Of a DNA stretch of 45,833 nucleotides, positions 3,242 through 30,249 are shown piece after piece. The position numbers were made by a program, and so were the translations under genes. Below the pieces are notes generated by a model. It saw nothing but the letters and a program-made list of their open reading frames with translations, was not told the DNA's origin and made no database searches. The DNA comes from Chitinivibrionales bacterium (GTDB lineage: Bacteria; Fibrobacterota; Chitinivibrionia; Chitinivibrionales; WJMI01). Where the stretch lies: assembly GCA_014728015.1 (NCBI GenBank), contig WJMI01000147.1, forward strand, positions 1-45,833. The letters run 5' to 3'. Position 1 is the stretch's first letter. Every line of letters starts with the position of its first letter.

Positions 3242-4630
3242 TCAAAAGGAGAACAGCTCGTAGTGGATCTTACGGGAAGAAATGCCTTTCTGTTTGAGTC
3301 CTTTCAGCAATCCCTGCATCATGGGCGGCGGCCCGCATATATAGAACGCGGACTTGGCAAACGGCTGCGCGCCGAAGCGGCCGGCATGGTCCGCCGTAAT
3401 GCGGCCCTGCTGGCCCTCCCACCCGGCGGGCGGCTCCTCGAGGAAATGCGTGAGCTTCACCACGGGATGCTCTCCCGAAGACATCCCGCGCAGTTCGTCC
3501 GCGAACGCGATATCTTCGCGTGTCTTGTTGGCATAGAGGAGCGCCGCATTGATATCCATGCCGGTATCCCGCATGTAGCGGAGCATGCTCATTATCGGCG
3601 TAATGCCTATGCCGCCCGCGATGAATGTTACCGTGGTTTCTTCGGGATGCAGAAGTAAGGAGAACCGGCCGAACGCGCCATGCACCGCAATCCGATCCCC
3701 CTGGCGTGTCCTGTCAATGAGCGATGTGAAATCTCCCGACCGCTTTATCGATGATACAAGGACCCCCTCGCTGGCCGGCGAGCCCGCAATCGTAAACGGA
3801 TGCTCTTCGACCGGCTGGTCTCTTCCCTCCACGAACCGCAGGAAATGGAATTGCCCGGGCGCGAAATCGAACCGGTCGTGACCTTCGGGCGGCACCAGCT
3901 CGAGCGTGTATACGCCCCGCGTTTCAGCGGATACTTTGCGGACCCTGTACGCCTGCCGTTTCAGCCGCCACAACCGCAACGCTATCTGGTTGAGGAAAAG
4001 GCCCCCCGCCACGGCACCCAGCGCGAGCCACAGAATGCGCATGCCGGGAACACGCAGGTCGCTGCCAATGAACCAGCTGTGCACCAGACCGGCGGCGAGG
4101 ACCAGGGGCGCGCCCAGCCGATGAAGAAAAAGCCAGCGCTGAAACTCGATATTCATTGCCCTGCGCCAAAGAGCAATAGCTCCGTGTACCAGAAGAACCA
4201 CCAACGCAGCCTTTCCCGCCAGAACGGCCCATGGCCAGTCGAGACCATACAGCAGGGCCCATCGCCCGGAACCCGCCGCCAGCAAGACGGGATGAGAGAG
4301 AATAAGCGCGGCGGAAACCATGCCCGCCGTCCTGTGAAACCGAATGGCGCGATCGAGCCCGAAGTGCATCGACACCCATTTCAGTCGCGCGGTGAGCACG
4401 ACCTGCAGTGCAAGCGCGGCATATCCGGCAAGACCGAGACTTCGACCGATGTTTCCCCATATGTTTCCCGAGAATAGCCACCCGAACCGGCCGGCAATTA
4501 GCAGAGGAAGCACGACGACCGCCGCATACAGCGCACACAGCGCGACACGGAGCAGCGGCACATGCCGTCCCTGCCGGCGGGAGACATATCGATCGAGCCG
4601 TTTCGTGACTGTTCCTTCGTTTTTGTCCAT
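3242..4630 (-). CDS. Ferric-reductase-like transmembrane flavocytochrome (NOX-like: haem TM + FAD + NAD(P)H domains)
   Basis: Two bis-His helices (FHRTAG..SHP; LHRLG..VHS), HPFT, GGIGITP, CGP, C-terminal ELFSF. Confidence 0.85.
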   Translation of the reverse strand: MDKNEGTVTKRLDRYVSRRQGRHVPLLRVALCALYAAVVVLPLLIAGRFGWLFSGNIWGNIGRSLGLAGYAALALQVVLTARLKWVSMHFGLDRAIRFHRTAGMVSAALILSHPVLLAAGSGRWALLYGLDWPWAVLAGKAALVVLLVHGAIALWRRAMNIEFQRWLFLHRLGAPLVLAAGLVHSWFIGSDLRVPGMRILWLALGAVAGGLFLNQIALRLWRLKRQAYRVRKVSAETRGVYTLELVPPEGHDRFDFAPGQFHFLRFVEGRDQPVEEHPFTIAGSPASEGVLVSSIKRSGDFTSLIDRTRQGDRIAVHGAFGRFSLLLHPEETTVTFIAGGIGITPIMSMLRYMRDTGMDINAALLYANKTREDIAFADELRGMSSGEHPVVKLTHFLEEPPAGWEGQQGRITADHAGRFGAQPFAKSAFYICGPPPMMQGLLKGLKQKGISSRKIHYELFSF

Positions 4631-26080: not shown

Positions 26081-27379
26081 TCACTCCTGCGTTCCGCGCG
26101 CAGTTTTCAATCCATCCCGCACATGCCACTCGTAGTACCCTCTCCTGGCCAGATTCATCGATGATGCCTTGAGCGCGCGCTCCGCCCGCCGGCCGAACTG
26201 ATCGCCCAACTCGCCAAGCTCGTCCAACAGCTTCGCTTCCCCGTCAAGCGGCGCGGATGCCGCGCGCAGCAGCTTGACCGCAACGAGGAACGCGGGATAG
26301 TAGGCGAACTCCCGCAACACACGCTCTGACGATACCAGCGAGCCGGCGCCCGACTGGCTCAGCATCCAGTGCTGCCATTCCACCAGCTCCGCATACCTTC
26401 GAAGGCTGAAATTGTGTGTGGCGAATTCCGCCCGCCGCACGCCGCGCGCCGCGGATCGGCCGCCGTGATAGAACGAGTCCGGATGAAAGCAGAGCTCTTC
26501 GTCCAGTTCGAGAAAAGCATAATACGCATTTACAGGGTACTCCTCTTGCAGCGAAGCAAATATCCCGGCTTTCTCTTCTGCGAGATGCCCGTAGTACGGC
26601 GAGAGAAACTGGATCAGGTACAGCTTGGATACTGTCCGCGTGTACTTGCCCTCGTGCGCGCTCAGGCGAAGATACTGCAGTCCCGAATCGAGGCTGGCCC
26701 CGCGATTGAAGAGGCGAAGCGCCTTGCCCAGCACCGCCGGCGCCTTTGCCAGCGTGCAGTGGAACAGGCCCGGTCCCATGTACGCATCGCGGATATCGGG
26801 ACGGTCGGCGATAACGTCCTCGAGTATGCGCAGCCCCCGCAACCCGTCAACCAGTGCCTCGAACGGGCTGCGGTCTATCTTGAGCGTTGCGGTATACCCG
26901 AGAATGCCGCCCTTGATCAGATCATACGTGACATGAACAGAATCGGAAATTCTTGCGCGATCGTCGCACTGCCGGATCCCTTCCTTCGCAAGCCCTTCAG
27001 CTTCCCGTATCAACCGTTCCTTCTCTCGTTCCGATTCATATTCCCCGTTCTGAATGCGCAGGATCCTCGCGGAGGTCAGGAGCAGGCGGCTGAGGGGAGG
27101 CAGGTCCTCCTGCCGCTCGAGCCGATTGAGCTTTCGCCCGAAACGCTCCGCCTGCTTCCACGAAAACGCATGGATGAAATACACGACGCTGTCGGCGAGC
27201 TGTTCCTGCTGAAGCGACATGCCGGGATACGGCGGCGCCTGTGCCGCACGACCCGGCGTGTCTGAAGAATCTGTCTGCGCGGTGAGAAAAAAAACAAAAA
27301 GCAGGACCGCGGCAAAGGCCCGGGCGCGGGAAACCGTGCGTGCGTGAGGGCCGCTCCGCTCCTGCGGGGAGACCCTCAA
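26081..27379 (-). CDS. Hypothetical exported helical (TPR-like) protein
   Basis: N-terminal hydrophobic segment, helical repeats (DAYMGPGLFH..GLQYL); overlaps the sigma-factor stop by 4 bp; start uncertain. Confidence 0.6.
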   Translation of the reverse strand: MRVSPQERSGPHARTVSRARAFAAVLLFVFFLTAQTDSSDTPGRAAQAPPYPGMSLQQEQLADSVVYFIHAFSWKQAERFGRKLNRLERQEDLPPLSRLLLTSARILRIQNGEYESEREKERLIREAEGLAKEGIRQCDDRARISDSVHVTYDLIKGGILGYTATLKIDRSPFEALVDGLRGLRILEDVIADRPDIRDAYMGPGLFHCTLAKAPAVLGKALRLFNRGASLDSGLQYLRLSAHEGKYTRTVSKLYLIQFLSPYYGHLAEEKAGIFASLQEEYPVNAYYAFLELDEELCFHPDSFYHGGRSAARGVRRAEFATHNFSLRRYAELVEWQHWMLSQSGAGSLVSSERVLREFAYYPAFLVAVKLLRAASAPLDGEAKLLDELGELGDQFGRRAERALKASSMNLARRGYYEWHVRDGLKTARGTQE

Positions 27380-28338
27380 TTCATGTGCTCCTTGAGGAAG
27401 CTTCTCATGTATTCGGTGCGAAGCGTTTTCATGGCGGTATCCTTCACCTGTCGCACGCGTTCCCGGGTCAGCCCCAGGCCCCTGCCGATGTCGTCGAGCG
27501 TTTGAGGTTCGTCCCGCTCAATCCCGAAGTACCGCTTGACGATTTCCTGCTCTCGCTCGTTCAGTGTTCGCAGCATCCGTTTCAAGGCCCGGATGGTCGA
27601 TTCGCGGGCAATCCCCTCGTCCGGTGTATGTCCTTCCTCATCACCGAGGACCACGTCGCCGTACACGCTCTTGGCATCACCCTCCAGCGGCTTGTCCAGA
27701 GAGACATGCGGACGGTTGATCTTGAGCGCCAACTCCACGTCGCGCCGGCCCAGCTCGGTTTCATCCGCCAGCTCATCGATGCTCGGGGCACGGTGCAGGC
27801 GCTGGACCAGCCGGTCGCTTGCCTTGCCGACTTTGTATACGCCGCTGACCCGATTCAGCGGAATCTTGAATAAACGGGACTGATCCGCCAATGTCTGCAA
27901 AATAGCCTGTCGGATCCACCATACCGCATAGGAAATGAACCGGAAGTTCTTTTTCTCGTCAAACCGCCGGGCCGCTTTCACCAGCCCCATATTGCCCACA
28001 CTCACCAGGTCTTCCAGCGGCACCCCCTGCTCCTGGTAGTTCTTGGCCACACTCACCACGAAACGAAGGTTTGACCGGATCAGCTTCTCAAGCGCCGCGC
28101 GATCACCCTTGCGTATCCGCCTCGCCAGGTGGGCCTCCTGTTCCGAACTCAACGGGCGATAGCGCTGGATATCCTGCAGATACATATCCAGCATCGTCGC
28201 CTCTTTTGCCGTCTCGACTTTGGGCACCTTCACCGTATCCTTCTTGCGGCGGCTTCGCGCATGCGCGCGCTTTGGCCGGCGCCGCTTGTCGGGCTTAGGC
28301 CCTTTCCGCCGTCTTTTTTCGCGTTGGTATTCTGCCAT
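27376..28338 (-). CDS. RpoD/SigA-family sigma70 factor lacking region 1.1
   Basis: YLQDI, NLRFVVSVAK, GNMGLVKAA.RFD, FISYAVWWIRQAI, TLDDIG..LTRERVRQ. Confidence 0.92.
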   Translation of the reverse strand: MAEYQREKRRRKGPKPDKRRRPKRAHARSRRKKDTVKVPKVETAKEATMLDMYLQDIQRYRPLSSEQEAHLARRIRKGDRAALEKLIRSNLRFVVSVAKNYQEQGVPLEDLVSVGNMGLVKAARRFDEKKNFRFISYAVWWIRQAILQTLADQSRLFKIPLNRVSGVYKVGKASDRLVQRLHRAPSIDELADETELGRRDVELALKINRPHVSLDKPLEGDAKSVYGDVVLGDEEGHTPDEGIARESTIRALKRMLRTLNEREQEIVKRYFGIERDEPQTLDDIGRGLGLTRERVRQVKDTAMKTLRTEYMRSFLKEHMN

Positions 28339-28490
28339 GGAAAAAAAGCCCCTTTCCGCCGCGTGCAGCGGTGGCATGCATTGGAATGAGGGCACATCGC
28401 CCTCAGGCCACTAATCATATGTATTAGGCCATTAAAGCTTTCGATTATTCGGCGCATTTATTGCGGCCTGATCCGGGCGCCGCGACGGGC

Positions 28491-29033
28491 TCATTTGTCA
28501 TTGCCGCCGGGGGCAAGAAAGGCGGTAATGGTGGAATCAAGTCTTTGCGGATCAAAACAATCCAAAGAACGGTACCCGTCATCGCACGATGCCATGACTA
28601 CGCCATCCTCGTTGAGCAGGAAATAAGAGCCACGGTTGTCGATTGTCTGGAGCCGATCGATATAGGTCGACGCATCGCGCAACACCGGAAGAGTCACGCC
28701 CGTCCTACGGATAAATTCCCGCACTTGTTTTCCGGTGCCGTCCCATGCATCCAGCCCCAACACCACAAAGCTGTCCAATCGGTATTCCTGATATGCGTCC
28801 TCCAACCTGGAGGCGCTCTTGCGACAGTAGCTTCACCCGGAACCAAAAGCAAAAAGTAGAACCTTTGTCCCTCGATAATCGGTAAGGGAATGGGTCTTCC
28901 CCTCGGTGTCGCGGAGGTGAAAGTCCGGCAGGGAGTCCCCTACATGGGGAGACTCGTCACATACTGCGAATGCTACCGTCGCGAGGACGAGCATGCCCAT
29001 AGTACGCATTTTGCCGCGCAAAGCAGTCATCAT
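28491..29033 (-). CDS. Selenocysteine-containing redoxin (AhpC/TSA/TlpA thioredoxin fold), U-x-x-C active site; TGA at 28833-28835 = Sec
   Basis: ORFs 28833..29057 and 28491..28805 are in the same frame; the join reads VLLFAFGSG-TGA-SYCRKSASRLEDAY; VGDSLPDFHLRDTEGKTHSLTDYRG redoxin N-terminus. Confidence 0.85.
28795..28816 (-). promoter_or_regulatory. Bacterial SECIS-like hairpin
   Basis: mRNA GCG-CCUCCA-GGU-UGGAGG-A-CGC; G-initiated apical loop 25 nt downstream of the UGA. Confidence 0.7.
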
Positions 29034-29037
29034 TTGT

Positions 29038-29514
29038 TTATTTGCTGGTAGCCCCAAAATACGACTTCCTGAATTTCTCCAGCGATTCCCTTAGTTTCTT
29101 TGTGTTCGCAAGGTCGGTGGTCTGCTTGCACTGCATCGCGTAGACCAGCATCTCGTGAAGCGCGCTGAGTTCCGTGATGTACTTCTGATACGCCTTCTCA
29201 TTGTCCGGCGAGGTCGGCTTGATCCGCTGGTTCATGAAGTACTGGTACACAATCTCCTGGATCTTGTTCGCATGCAGCTCCTTGTTGTCGATCCATCGTA
29301 CGAGCTGATTGTAGTTCTTGTCCTTTGCGGCGCCCAACTCCTCGATTTTTTTCATCGACTTCTCAATCGTCCCGATATGCTCTTCAATCATGGATACACG
29401 CGCGGTATCATCATAAATACCGCATGGAATCTCACAATGGGCGAATACCCCGCCTGCCAGAAACAGAAATGCCAGACCGAATATTTCCGCGCTGGCCCCA
29501 CTTCGGATTCTCAT
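29038..29514 (-). CDS. sodN: Nickel superoxide dismutase precursor
   Basis: Ni-hook HCEIPCGIYD after signal peptide ending VFA; NQLVRWI..KE.HA, YF.NQRIK; GGAGG RBS. Confidence 0.92.
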   Translation of the reverse strand: MRIRSGASAEIFGLAFLFLAGGVFAHCEIPCGIYDDTARVSMIEEHIGTIEKSMKKIEELGAAKDKNYNQLVRWIDNKELHANKIQEIVYQYFMNQRIKPTSPDNEKAYQKYITELSALHEMLVYAMQCKQTTDLANTKKLRESLEKFRKSYFGATSK

Positions 29515-29601
29515 AAAAAATCCTCCCGTCTCCTTCACGCAAAAAGGGCTGGTGTCCCGACCCCATGCAATTCGTGCATCGGGCCGGGAATAGTGCATTG
29601 C

Positions 29602-30030
29602 TTACAAGGCCGCCTCGGCGGTCCAATAGCCGTGGACATTGCAGTTCTCTACTATCCGTACCTTGGATCCGTTTGCTTTCAAATGAAACAGCGAGCCGGG
29701 ATTCACTCCCGGTGTAAGGTACTGCCGCGAAACGTATGCATCATCGACGTAGCAGTCGATGAACTGGATGAAATGCTTTTCTTCCATGGGATGAATCTTC
29801 TCGCCGATTACCACGAGAACATCGACACATCCGGCGTTGGGTATCAGCGCGCACTCCTTCTTGACCGTTATGGCCGGGATGTGCTTGGCCGATGCTTCCT
29901 TGCTTTTCTCCTCCGACTCCTTGAATATGTTGTCGTTCTGCGTGAACTTGGTCGCTCCACAGACCGGGCACTTTTCCGGCGCGGAACCGAACTCGATATG
30001 GCCGCACGCATTACAAATGTAAACCGACAT
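29602..30030 (-). CDS. Superoxide reductase (desulfoferrodoxin-type) with N-terminal rubredoxin-like domain
   Basis: CNACG..CPVCG N-domain; KHIP, HPMEEKHFI, CNVHG (4 His + Cys); AGGAGG RBS before ATG 30030. Confidence 0.88.
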   Translation of the reverse strand: MSVYICNACGHIEFGSAPEKCPVCGATKFTQNDNIFKESEEKSKEASAKHIPAITVKKECALIPNAGCVDVLVVIGEKIHPMEEKHFIQFIDCYVDDAYVSRQYLTPGVNPGSLFHLKANGSKVRIVENCNVHGYWTAEAAL

Positions 30031-30175
30031 GCACTCCTCCTTCTGGTGAATATTGTTCGTCACTTTTGCGTTTTCTATGCAACATGACGCCGCGCAAATC
30101 TCCGGAGGACTTGCGCGATATGCGGATATGCTGACAGTAAAGAAACATCCTTTTCTCTCACAGGGTATACTTTTA

Positions 30176-30191
30176 TGCAATGAGCATGCCA
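30176..30191 (-). promoter_or_regulatory. sigma54 -24/-12 promoter for the SOR-sodN-selenoredoxin operon
   Basis: Minus strand TGGCAT-GCTCA-TTGCA. Confidence 0.78.
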
Positions 30192-30249
30192 ATCGAGCGC
30201 GAAGGCTGCTTGCGCCAAGCGCTCAAGATAAGCTATGTAAGGCGCCCGG

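Follow-up and report, generated by a model that had tools for sequence, protein, structure and literature searches.

An in-frame TGA in a Chitinivibrionales genome probably encodes the selenocysteine of an exported ResA-like redoxin

On the minus strand of contig WJMI01000147.1 from a Chitinivibrionales bacterium (phylum Fibrobacterota, GenBank assembly GCA_014728015.1), a gene for a thioredoxin-fold protein is interrupted by a single TGA codon, which stands where the first cysteine of a CxxC active site belongs. The question raised by this locus is whether the TGA is decoded as selenocysteine (Sec, U in the one-letter code), so that one redoxin is made, or whether it ends or disables the gene. 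The window, as the term is used here, is the whole stretch of DNA that was analyzed, i.e. positions 1 to 45,833 of the contig (C73 in our numbering of the assembly, which has 428 contigs and 4.22 Mb and is 93.8% complete). A first-pass annotation, made from the letters alone, had proposed a hidden selenoprotein at positions 28491 to 29033. These coordinates held, and the strand, which had been left unstated, is the minus one. The main features of the gene are the following:

28494..29033, minus strand: coding sequence of the putative selenoprotein, 180 amino acids from the first ATG, with its stop codon TGA at 28491-28493
29009, minus strand: alternative ATG start (MRTMGML...), which fits the N-termini of the homologues better
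28833..28835, minus strand: TGA, putative Sec codon (U67), first position of the U-S-Y-C active-site motif
28824-28826, minus strand: C70, the Cys of the U-S-Y-C motif

When read from 29033 to 28491, the minus strand forms one frame, opened by the ATG at 29033 and closed by the terminal stop, and the TGA at 28835-28833 is its sole internal stop. The two open reading frames (ORFs) called with translation table 11, at 28833..29057 (74 amino acids) and 28491..28805 (104 amino acids), share this frame, as had been noted in the first-pass annotation. Its description of the residues around the TGA was also borne out, since the read-through product is L-L-F-A-F-G-S-G-U-S-Y-C-R-K and both this translation and an alignment with ResA put U at the first Cys of the CxxC motif. 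The family profile match spans 28497-29009. Two Pfam domains, AhpC-TSA (E 6.5e-17; 62.1 bits, cut-off 26) and Redoxin (E 3.9e-13), run across the TGA and cover residues 39-154 of the read-through protein. Taken together with the evidence given below, these features suggest that 28494-29033 encodes a genuine Sec-decoded, exported ResA-like redoxin, a reading to which we assign a probability of about 0.88 (about 0.9 for its being a genuine selenoprotein). The locus would then specify one exported selenoprotein of some 180 amino acids and not two genes.

The same codon was found in related genes. A six-frame search of 41 genomes (this genome and 40 relatives) detected the protein in four of them; in all three relatives, a single TGA falls within the matching region. 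When a profile was run against 296 Fibrobacterota genomes, this one included, four strong matches were obtained (201-296 bits), each with exactly one TGA, together with two weaker paralogues (62-63 bits) that have no stops. The three full homologues come from other Chitinivibrionales/Fibrobacterota genomes, are 42-51% identical to the window protein and all carry the TGA in the same column (3/3). Their motifs are G-Y-G-U-S-F-C (genome G001), G-Y-G-U-S-Y-C (G029) and G-Y-G-U-P-Y-C (G024, where the remainder of the gene is partly masked). Identity to the window protein amounts to 20-23 of 39 positions before U and to 56/114, 47/112 and 31/66 positions after it, which points to comparable conservation on both sides. 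A full-length Cys form of the protein also exists. This metagenomic sequence, P0004, named 'peroxiredoxin' in its source, reads G-Y-N-C-G-W-C at the motif and shares 53% identity with the window protein over 155 amino acids. The homologue check proposed in the first-pass annotation, which asked for Cys or TGA at this position and not Trp, was therefore favorable.

On a broader scale, 94 loci could be aligned at U67. The residue was Cys in 71, a stop in 12, Thr in 7 (peroxiredoxins), Ala in 2, and Trp and His in one each. Six of the stop rows belong to the window redoxin family, where they stand for four distinct genes, and the rest to separate Sec-type TlpA-like lines. In the 40-row alignment, the columns of C67 and C70 are conserved at 90% or more. 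These data bear directly on the possibility that the TGA arose from TGT, TGC or TGG by nonsense mutation or by a sequencing or assembly error, and that the gene is a pseudogene. Such an origin could be suspected in a single metagenome-assembled genome (MAG) of 428 contigs, in which gene callers split the gene. It is nevertheless hardly credible, because the same TGA is present in three other genomes, which belong to other families of the order and were assembled separately; because conservation after the TGA (42-49% identity) nearly equals that before it; because the hairpin described below is kept at synonymous sites; and because Trp occupies the column in only one of the 94 loci, a distant one, and in no member of the family.

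As had been anticipated in the first-pass annotation, the gene is miscalled by standard pipelines, and protein collections hold pieces of it only. An exhaustive search of representative proteins gave 22,706 matches at E ≤0.001, 12 of them at ≤1e-30. Among the matches, the C-terminal pieces P0005, P0007, P0009 and P0011 begin just past the TGA position, while the N-terminal piece P0088 ends at ...G-Y-G. P0005, a piece of the G001 gene, has an NCBI entry under Chitinivibrionales as a 'hypothetical protein', and P0011 represents a further family member known from its protein piece. When the full read-through protein was used in a word-indexed protein search, nothing was returned at near lengths; with the C-terminal piece, the search returned solely the window's own 95-amino-acid fragment. 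A metagenome scan, whose patterns could not match P0004, yielded nine relatives (best identity 38%), none of them of the window redoxin family. In a tree built from the region after U, the six family members form a clade with support 100/99. The Cys form P0004 falls inside this Sec clade but is weakly placed, the internal order being supported at 83/69 and lower.

Searching the genome for selA, selB, selC and selD, as the first-pass annotation had advised, showed that the complete machinery for Sec insertion is encoded. The gene for tRNA-Sec (68 bits, cut-off 47; called by ARAGORN as tRNA-SeC with anticodon tca), selA (520 bits) and selB (315 bits) adjoin one another on contig C122, and selD (360 bits) is located on contig C427 at 27503-28438 (locus L017); the three protein genes all score over curated cut-offs. 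The selD gene has one in-frame TGA, in the context C-A-G-U-A-G-K, and a hairpin with a GUU loop 33 nucleotides (nt) past the UGA and a bulged A on the 3' side, as in the redoxin hairpin; SelD of this genome is itself a predicted selenoprotein. In addition, a gene for a typical 2-Cys peroxiredoxin on contig C283, around position 4528 (locus L119, 1375-2100), has a TGA at the peroxidatic site (F-T-F-V-U-A-T-E), with a hairpin UCUCUGC-GGUC-GCAGAGA at a spacing of 17 nt after the UGA. Since the machinery is complete and this second gene of the AhpC/TSA family has a TGA as well, the Sec system is present and appears to be in use. The peroxiredoxin gene would be another selenoprotein gene that gene callers truncate.

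TGA is also the commonest ordinary stop codon of the genome, where it closes 802 of the 1659 open frames of at least 400 codons. Global recoding of TGA was rejected on these counts. No internal stop was found in selA, selB, the DsbD gene or four other AhpC-like genes of the same genome, and a search of this 93.8%-complete assembly for formate dehydrogenase alpha (TIGR01591) was negative. Within the phylum, SelB scored over its cut-off in 34 of the 296 genomes.

With the machinery in place, two other fates of the UGA can be considered. It could mostly terminate translation, so that a 66-amino-acid N-terminal peptide and/or a separately started C-terminal protein of 104 amino acids is made and the hairpin serves for pausing or mRNA stability. 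Decoding of Sec is generally inefficient, and both pieces are covered by table-11 ORFs, the second with a TTG start at 28805. This TTG, however, falls within the hairpin, and a break at the TGA would separate strand 1 of the thioredoxin fold from the helix that bears the active site, so that neither piece would be a domain. The continuous Cys homologue P0004, the complete Sec machinery and the two other Sec genes likewise argue against termination, which we judge very improbable. Alternatively, the UGA could be read as another amino acid, either Cys carried on tRNA-Sec under scarce selenium or Trp inserted by a near-cognate tRNA. Both kinds of read-through are known in other bacteria, and the family does include a Cys form, which would be functional. 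Sec is favored as the normal product by the dedicated hairpin and by the complete selenium pathway with its selD, and Trp is absent from the site within the family; another amino acid as the usual outcome is thus very improbable.

Decoding as Sec would require a selenocysteine insertion sequence (SECIS) downstream of the UGA. The candidate element is:

28795..28816 (22 nt), minus strand: SECIS-like hairpin GCG-CCUCCA-GGU-UGGAGG-A-CGC, with the GGU loop at 28805-28807 and a bulged A on the 3' side

Its loop had been placed 25 nt after the UGA in the first-pass annotation, and the measured distance is exactly 25 nt. The local 30-nt fold has an energy of -14.2 kcal/mol (z = -3.8), and none of 200 shuffled sequences folded as well. 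The rules for bacterial SECIS (bSECIS) elements, as given in a 2026 review (PMC13188914), call for a loop of 3-9 nt with a G among its first two positions, an upper stem of 4-16 bp, a UGA-to-loop spacing of 16-37 nt and a minimum free energy ≤-7.5 kcal/mol. The hairpins of all four Sec-type genes lie within these limits, with spacings of 25, 24, 25 and 25 nt, a 6-bp stem and folding energies of -14.2, -11.3, -8.6 and -8.6 kcal/mol. Their loops read GGU, except in G001, where the loop is CGUGU with the G in second position.

When the DNA of these four genes is aligned, the core GCCTCC-N-G-K-K-TGGAGG varies only at three positions of the G001 loop. Over the 273-nt gap-free codon alignment, 33% of all positions and 11% of third positions are invariant, and the most conserved 18-nt segments, which begin at +18 to +21 nt from the TGA, coincide with the hairpin. 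Invariant residues with degenerate codons use the same codon in 3 of 4 cases inside the hairpin and in 2 of 20 outside it (one-sided Fisher p = 0.018, from small numbers and related sequences). As the TGA and the hairpin core recur in four of the four homologous genes, the hairpin is considered to be above chance. The Sec machinery, the TGA and Cys homologues and the hairpin conforming to the bSECIS rules all support the reading, made in the first-pass annotation, of a Sec-containing redoxin of about 180 amino acids.

Some observations weigh against this conclusion. Out of 20,000 random genomic TGA triplets, 6.1% precede a contiguous-stem hairpin that fits the rules at ≤-7.5 kcal/mol, and the window hairpin taken alone is only moderately unusual. 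Longer stretches of 61 and 71 nt fold unremarkably (z = -0.7 and -0.8). The stem is invariant, without compensatory changes among the four genes, and the hairpin is therefore supported by conservation and not by covariation. No Rfam family matched the stretch 28400-29100 at E values of up to 10. Finally, the carrier genome G024, which is 80% complete, showed no selB over the cut-off.

According to the mechanism that we propose, the UGA at 28835-28833 would be decoded as Sec by SelB and tRNA-Sec under the guidance of the hairpin at 28816-28795. The resulting active site, U-S-Y-C, would stand where helix 1 of a thioredoxin fold of the ResA/TlpA type begins. The predicted structure is in line with such an arrangement. 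The AlphaFold2 model, built from the 40-row alignment, has a mean predicted local distance difference test score (pLDDT) of 87.2 and a predicted template-modeling (pTM) score of 0.81, the first ~20 residues being at pLDDT 53-60. Its top Foldseek match is ResA of Bacillus subtilis (3c73_A, E 5e-12, target TM 0.90). Further matches include a Chlorobium DsbE-like protein, SdbA (5um7) and Etrx2, and the AhpE/BCP peroxiredoxins come lower (target TM 0.74-0.80). ResA was also the best sequence-profile match in the PDB (3c71, E 4.5e-14), with U67-S-Y-C70 aligned to the C-x-x-C of ResA at the start of helix 1 and U standing for the first Cys. No curated NCBIfam model claims the window protein. The clade has a specific W-D-G loop after strand 3, and its cis-Pro segment contains no Pro in any of the six members, R-G (in I-D-N-R-G) being invariant there.

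Two further features of the protein are its N-terminus and a Cys pair:

28965..29033, minus strand: signal-peptide-like N-terminus MMTALRGKMRTMGMLVLATVAFA followed by VC..., recognized by eye from a basic stretch, a hydrophobic core and an A-F-A end
28557..28586, minus strand: Cys pair C150...C159 (S-C-D-D-G-Y-x-S-x-x-C-F), specific to the clade

Inspected by eye, the N-termini of all four Sec genes show a few basic residues, a hydrophobic core and an end that resembles A-x-A or a lipobox (L-I-G-C in G001). This segment is a plausible export signal or anchor, and the Cys that follows A-F-A in the window protein could instead be a lipoprotein Cys. The C150...C159 pair is kept in the window protein, G001, G029, P0004, P0009 and P0011 and is absent from the wider CxxC family; it probably forms a structural disulfide. 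Once exported by its signal peptide, the redoxin would use Sec67 as the attacking nucleophile and would cycle between a reduced selenolate/thiol state and an oxidized form, the Sec67-Cys70 selenenylsulfide. Re-reduction might proceed from the cytoplasm through a membrane conduit of the DsbD/CcdA type. The genome has a DsbD_TM gene (98.5 bits) that could supply the electrons.

The redoxin gene is the last of a three-gene run on the minus strand, preceded by genes for a superoxide reductase (SOR)-like protein and a nickel superoxide dismutase (NiSOD), in that order:

29602..30192, minus strand: SOR-like gene, first of the run (Pfam Desulfoferrodox, E 6.2e-17), probable start ATG 30030
29038..29598, minus strand: NiSOD gene (Pfam Sod_Ni, E 3.2e-32), probable start ATG 29514
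30400-30372, minus strand: promoter-like site, a consensus match only

Successive ORFs of the run are 3-4 nt apart, and the stop codon of the NiSOD gene lies 4 nt before the redoxin ATG. The run looks like one oxidative-stress transcription unit. The NiSOD has a signal-peptide-like leader (M-R-I-R-S-G-A-S-A-E-I-F-G-L-A-F-L-F-L-A-G-G-V-F-A) that abuts the nickel hook H-C-E-I-P-C-G-I-Y; because the leader ends just short of the His-Cys of the hook, cleavage by signal peptidase could serve for export of the enzyme and at the same time expose the His as its N-terminus. In the region examined, no gene for a sodX-like peptidase was found beside the NiSOD gene. The SOR-like protein has an N-terminal rubrerythrin-type rubredoxin-like Cys4 ribbon (RUBY_RBDX, E 9.2e-08) in place of the usual desulforedoxin-like domain. 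Beyond the SOR-like gene, genes for tRNA-Pro and tRNA-Arg are found on the other strand, and directly downstream of the redoxin gene, at 27376-28395 on the minus strand, is a gene for a full sigma-70 family factor, which comprises regions 1.2, 2, 3 and 4 and carries a long, basic extension at its N-terminus.

Co-transcription with the SOR-like and NiSOD genes would place the redoxin in oxidative-stress defense outside the cytoplasm. It counts against this role that the homologues in G001, G029 and G024 adjoin unrelated genes. Since the SOD/SOR neighborhood is not conserved, the proposed role rests on one genome.

The substrate of the redoxin is much less certain than its nature as a selenoprotein. 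We lean slightly towards direct reduction of peroxide, by chemistry similar to that of glutathione peroxidases (GPx) at the same position of the fold, because the cis-Pro is lost, Sec is used and a peroxide-producing SOD is encoded next door. Alternatively, the protein may be a real selenoprotein that acts, like ResA, TlpA or Etrx, as a reductant of oxidized periplasmic proteins such as cytochrome c apoproteins or methionine sulfoxide reductase (Msr), a function that we consider a serious candidate, with a probability somewhat below one half. ResA is the closest protein by both sequence and structure, Etrx2 (4hqz, 2yp6) and SdbA (5um7) were matched too, the U-x-x-C motif retains a resolving Cys, and the genome has, besides the DsbD_TM gene, one for a cytochrome c assembly protein (94.4 bits). 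Thioredoxin-like proteins use the cis-Pro to hold protein substrates, however, and here R134-G135 occupy the place of the ResA L-P (cis-Pro) in the profile alignment. The protein also scores only 64.7 bits against the NCBIfam ResA subfamily (cut-off 170). For cytochrome maturation, better candidates are offered by two canonical TlpA-like paralogues of the same genome, which have the motif W-A-T-Y-C-x-P-C and an L-P loop, and the partners in the putative operon act on superoxide, one of them making peroxide. All of these points tell against a ResA-like reductase of protein clients.

Peroxidase activity has difficulties of its own. Aligned by hhalign to the peroxiredoxins of the same genome, U67 is set on the Thr of the peroxiredoxin T-x-x-C and C70 on the peroxidatic residue, and the peroxiredoxin motif P-x-x-x-T-x-x-C(U) was not found, as neither its Pro nor its Thr is present. 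From the pairing of U67 with Thr, Sec appears to occupy the first, solvent-facing position of the motif and not the peroxiredoxin position. That first position corresponds across thioredoxins, TlpA proteins and glutathione peroxidases. A table in PMC13188914 lists TxxU for peroxiredoxins and UxxT for GPX-like proteins. The score against Pfam GSHPx, 19.4 bits, is below the cut-off of 27. R134, which is invariant in the clade, had been considered as the catalytic Arg of peroxiredoxins; this assignment was dropped, as the offset was one residue by eye and hhalign gave no alignment to the peroxiredoxin Arg.

A more far-reaching view is that the clade might be a distinct extracytoplasmic selenoperoxidase, built on a ResA-like scaffold with Sec at the GPx-equivalent position and paired here with a NiSOD that bears a signal peptide, so that superoxide would be converted to water entirely outside the cytoplasm. 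The cis-Pro would have been lost as a client-binding element, the R-G loop, the W-D-G loop and a C-terminal disulfide would have been gained, and the host would be an anaerobic polysaccharide degrader. As a whole, with these parts taken jointly, this view is tentative and rather unlikely to be correct.

Compared with ResA of B. subtilis and with TlpA and CcmG (PDB 1st9, 3c71, 3c73), the window redoxin has the same fold, the same dyad on helix 1, an N-terminal export or anchor segment and, probably, recycling through a CcdA/DsbD-type conduit. It differs from ResA in that Sec replaces the first Cys, the motif is not preceded by Trp (G-S-G-U vs W-C), R-G takes the place of the cis-Pro loop, and an extra C-terminal Cys pair and the W-D-G loop are present; its gene does not stand beside cytochrome-maturation genes. 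In glutathione peroxidases (U-x-x-T), which also have a thioredoxin fold, Sec likewise comes first in a motif derived from CxxC, and this position is the site of peroxide attack. In contrast to these enzymes, the second motif residue of the window protein is Cys and not Thr, and no catalytic Gln, Trp or Asn residues were identified in it. Etrx1 and Etrx2 of Streptococcus pneumoniae (4hqz, 2yp6; Foldseek ranks 32 and 45) are exported ResA-like lipoproteins that have a role in extracellular oxidative-stress resistance. Unlike the window redoxin, they are Cys enzymes with a cis-Pro and with MsrAB2 as partner; no Msr gene is found beside the window gene.

Selenoproteins of a similar type have been described. 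Table 1 of PMC1794560 includes a 'Prx-like thiol:disulfide oxidoreductase' and a 'thiol:disulfide interchange protein', and the same survey states that conversions of Cys to Sec are concentrated in small families of thiol-redox proteins. PMC13188914 lists PF00578/UxxC and Sec-type TlpA proteins. By description, which is the level at which they could be compared, the Prx-like thiol:disulfide oxidoreductase selenoproteins (PF00578, UxxC/UxxU) resemble the window protein in the PF00578 match and the U-x-x-C motif. The published examples, as far as these sources list them, are mainly from Deltaproteobacteria and Clostridia, whereas the members found of the clade of the window protein came solely from Chitinivibrionales/Fibrobacterota genomes and from a small number of metagenome contigs. 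Since the window gene matches the published PF00578/UxxC description, it belongs to a recognized selenoprotein class. Its novelty is modest, and there is little here to surprise a selenoprotein specialist. A literature search, the scope of which did not extend to the supplementary tables of selenoproteome surveys, found nothing joining Chitinivibrionia with selenocysteine, which is not proof of an unpublished family, and in its accessible text PMC1794560 mentions Fibrobacteres only as sparsely sequenced.

The annotation of the locus is corrected by this analysis. Public protein sets represent the window gene and its relatives by unnamed fragments alone, so that the selenoproteins of Chitinivibrionales/Fibrobacterota are undercounted. 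With this family, one more small clade joins the thiol oxidoreductase families known to switch between Cys and Sec. The link of the window gene to NiSOD and superoxide reductase offers a testable idea on the cell-envelope defense of a strict anaerobe against oxygen species.

Sec forms were also seen in other ResA/TlpA-like lines. NCBIfam NF041054, a 'ResA-like WAxxUGC motif-containing protein', has Sec for the catalytic Cys in a ResA-like fold, as does the window protein, which scores only 34.7 bits against it (cut-off 300) and differs in motif and length. NF041054 and the other Sec TlpA-like lines are to be regarded as independent Cys-to-Sec lines outside the window family. Loci L047, L096 and L111-L116 are unrelated TlpA-like genes with a stop at the position of the first active-site Cys, in the contexts F-W-T-T-W-*-T-W-C (a deltaproteobacterial MAG), W-A-S-W-*-G-C (a Dehalococcoidia MAG) and A-D-W-*-P-Y-C (several soil metagenome contigs), and probably represent Sec forms that are independent of the window family. 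Outside the clade, the nearest Cys relatives (P0003, P0006, P0008, P0010 and P0012) often have two or three tandem redoxin domains, with the motifs G-Y-x-C-P-x-C ... L-G-L-D-x-W-x-G ... T-T-Y-D-R, and some single-domain relatives end in an apparent type IX secretion sorting domain.

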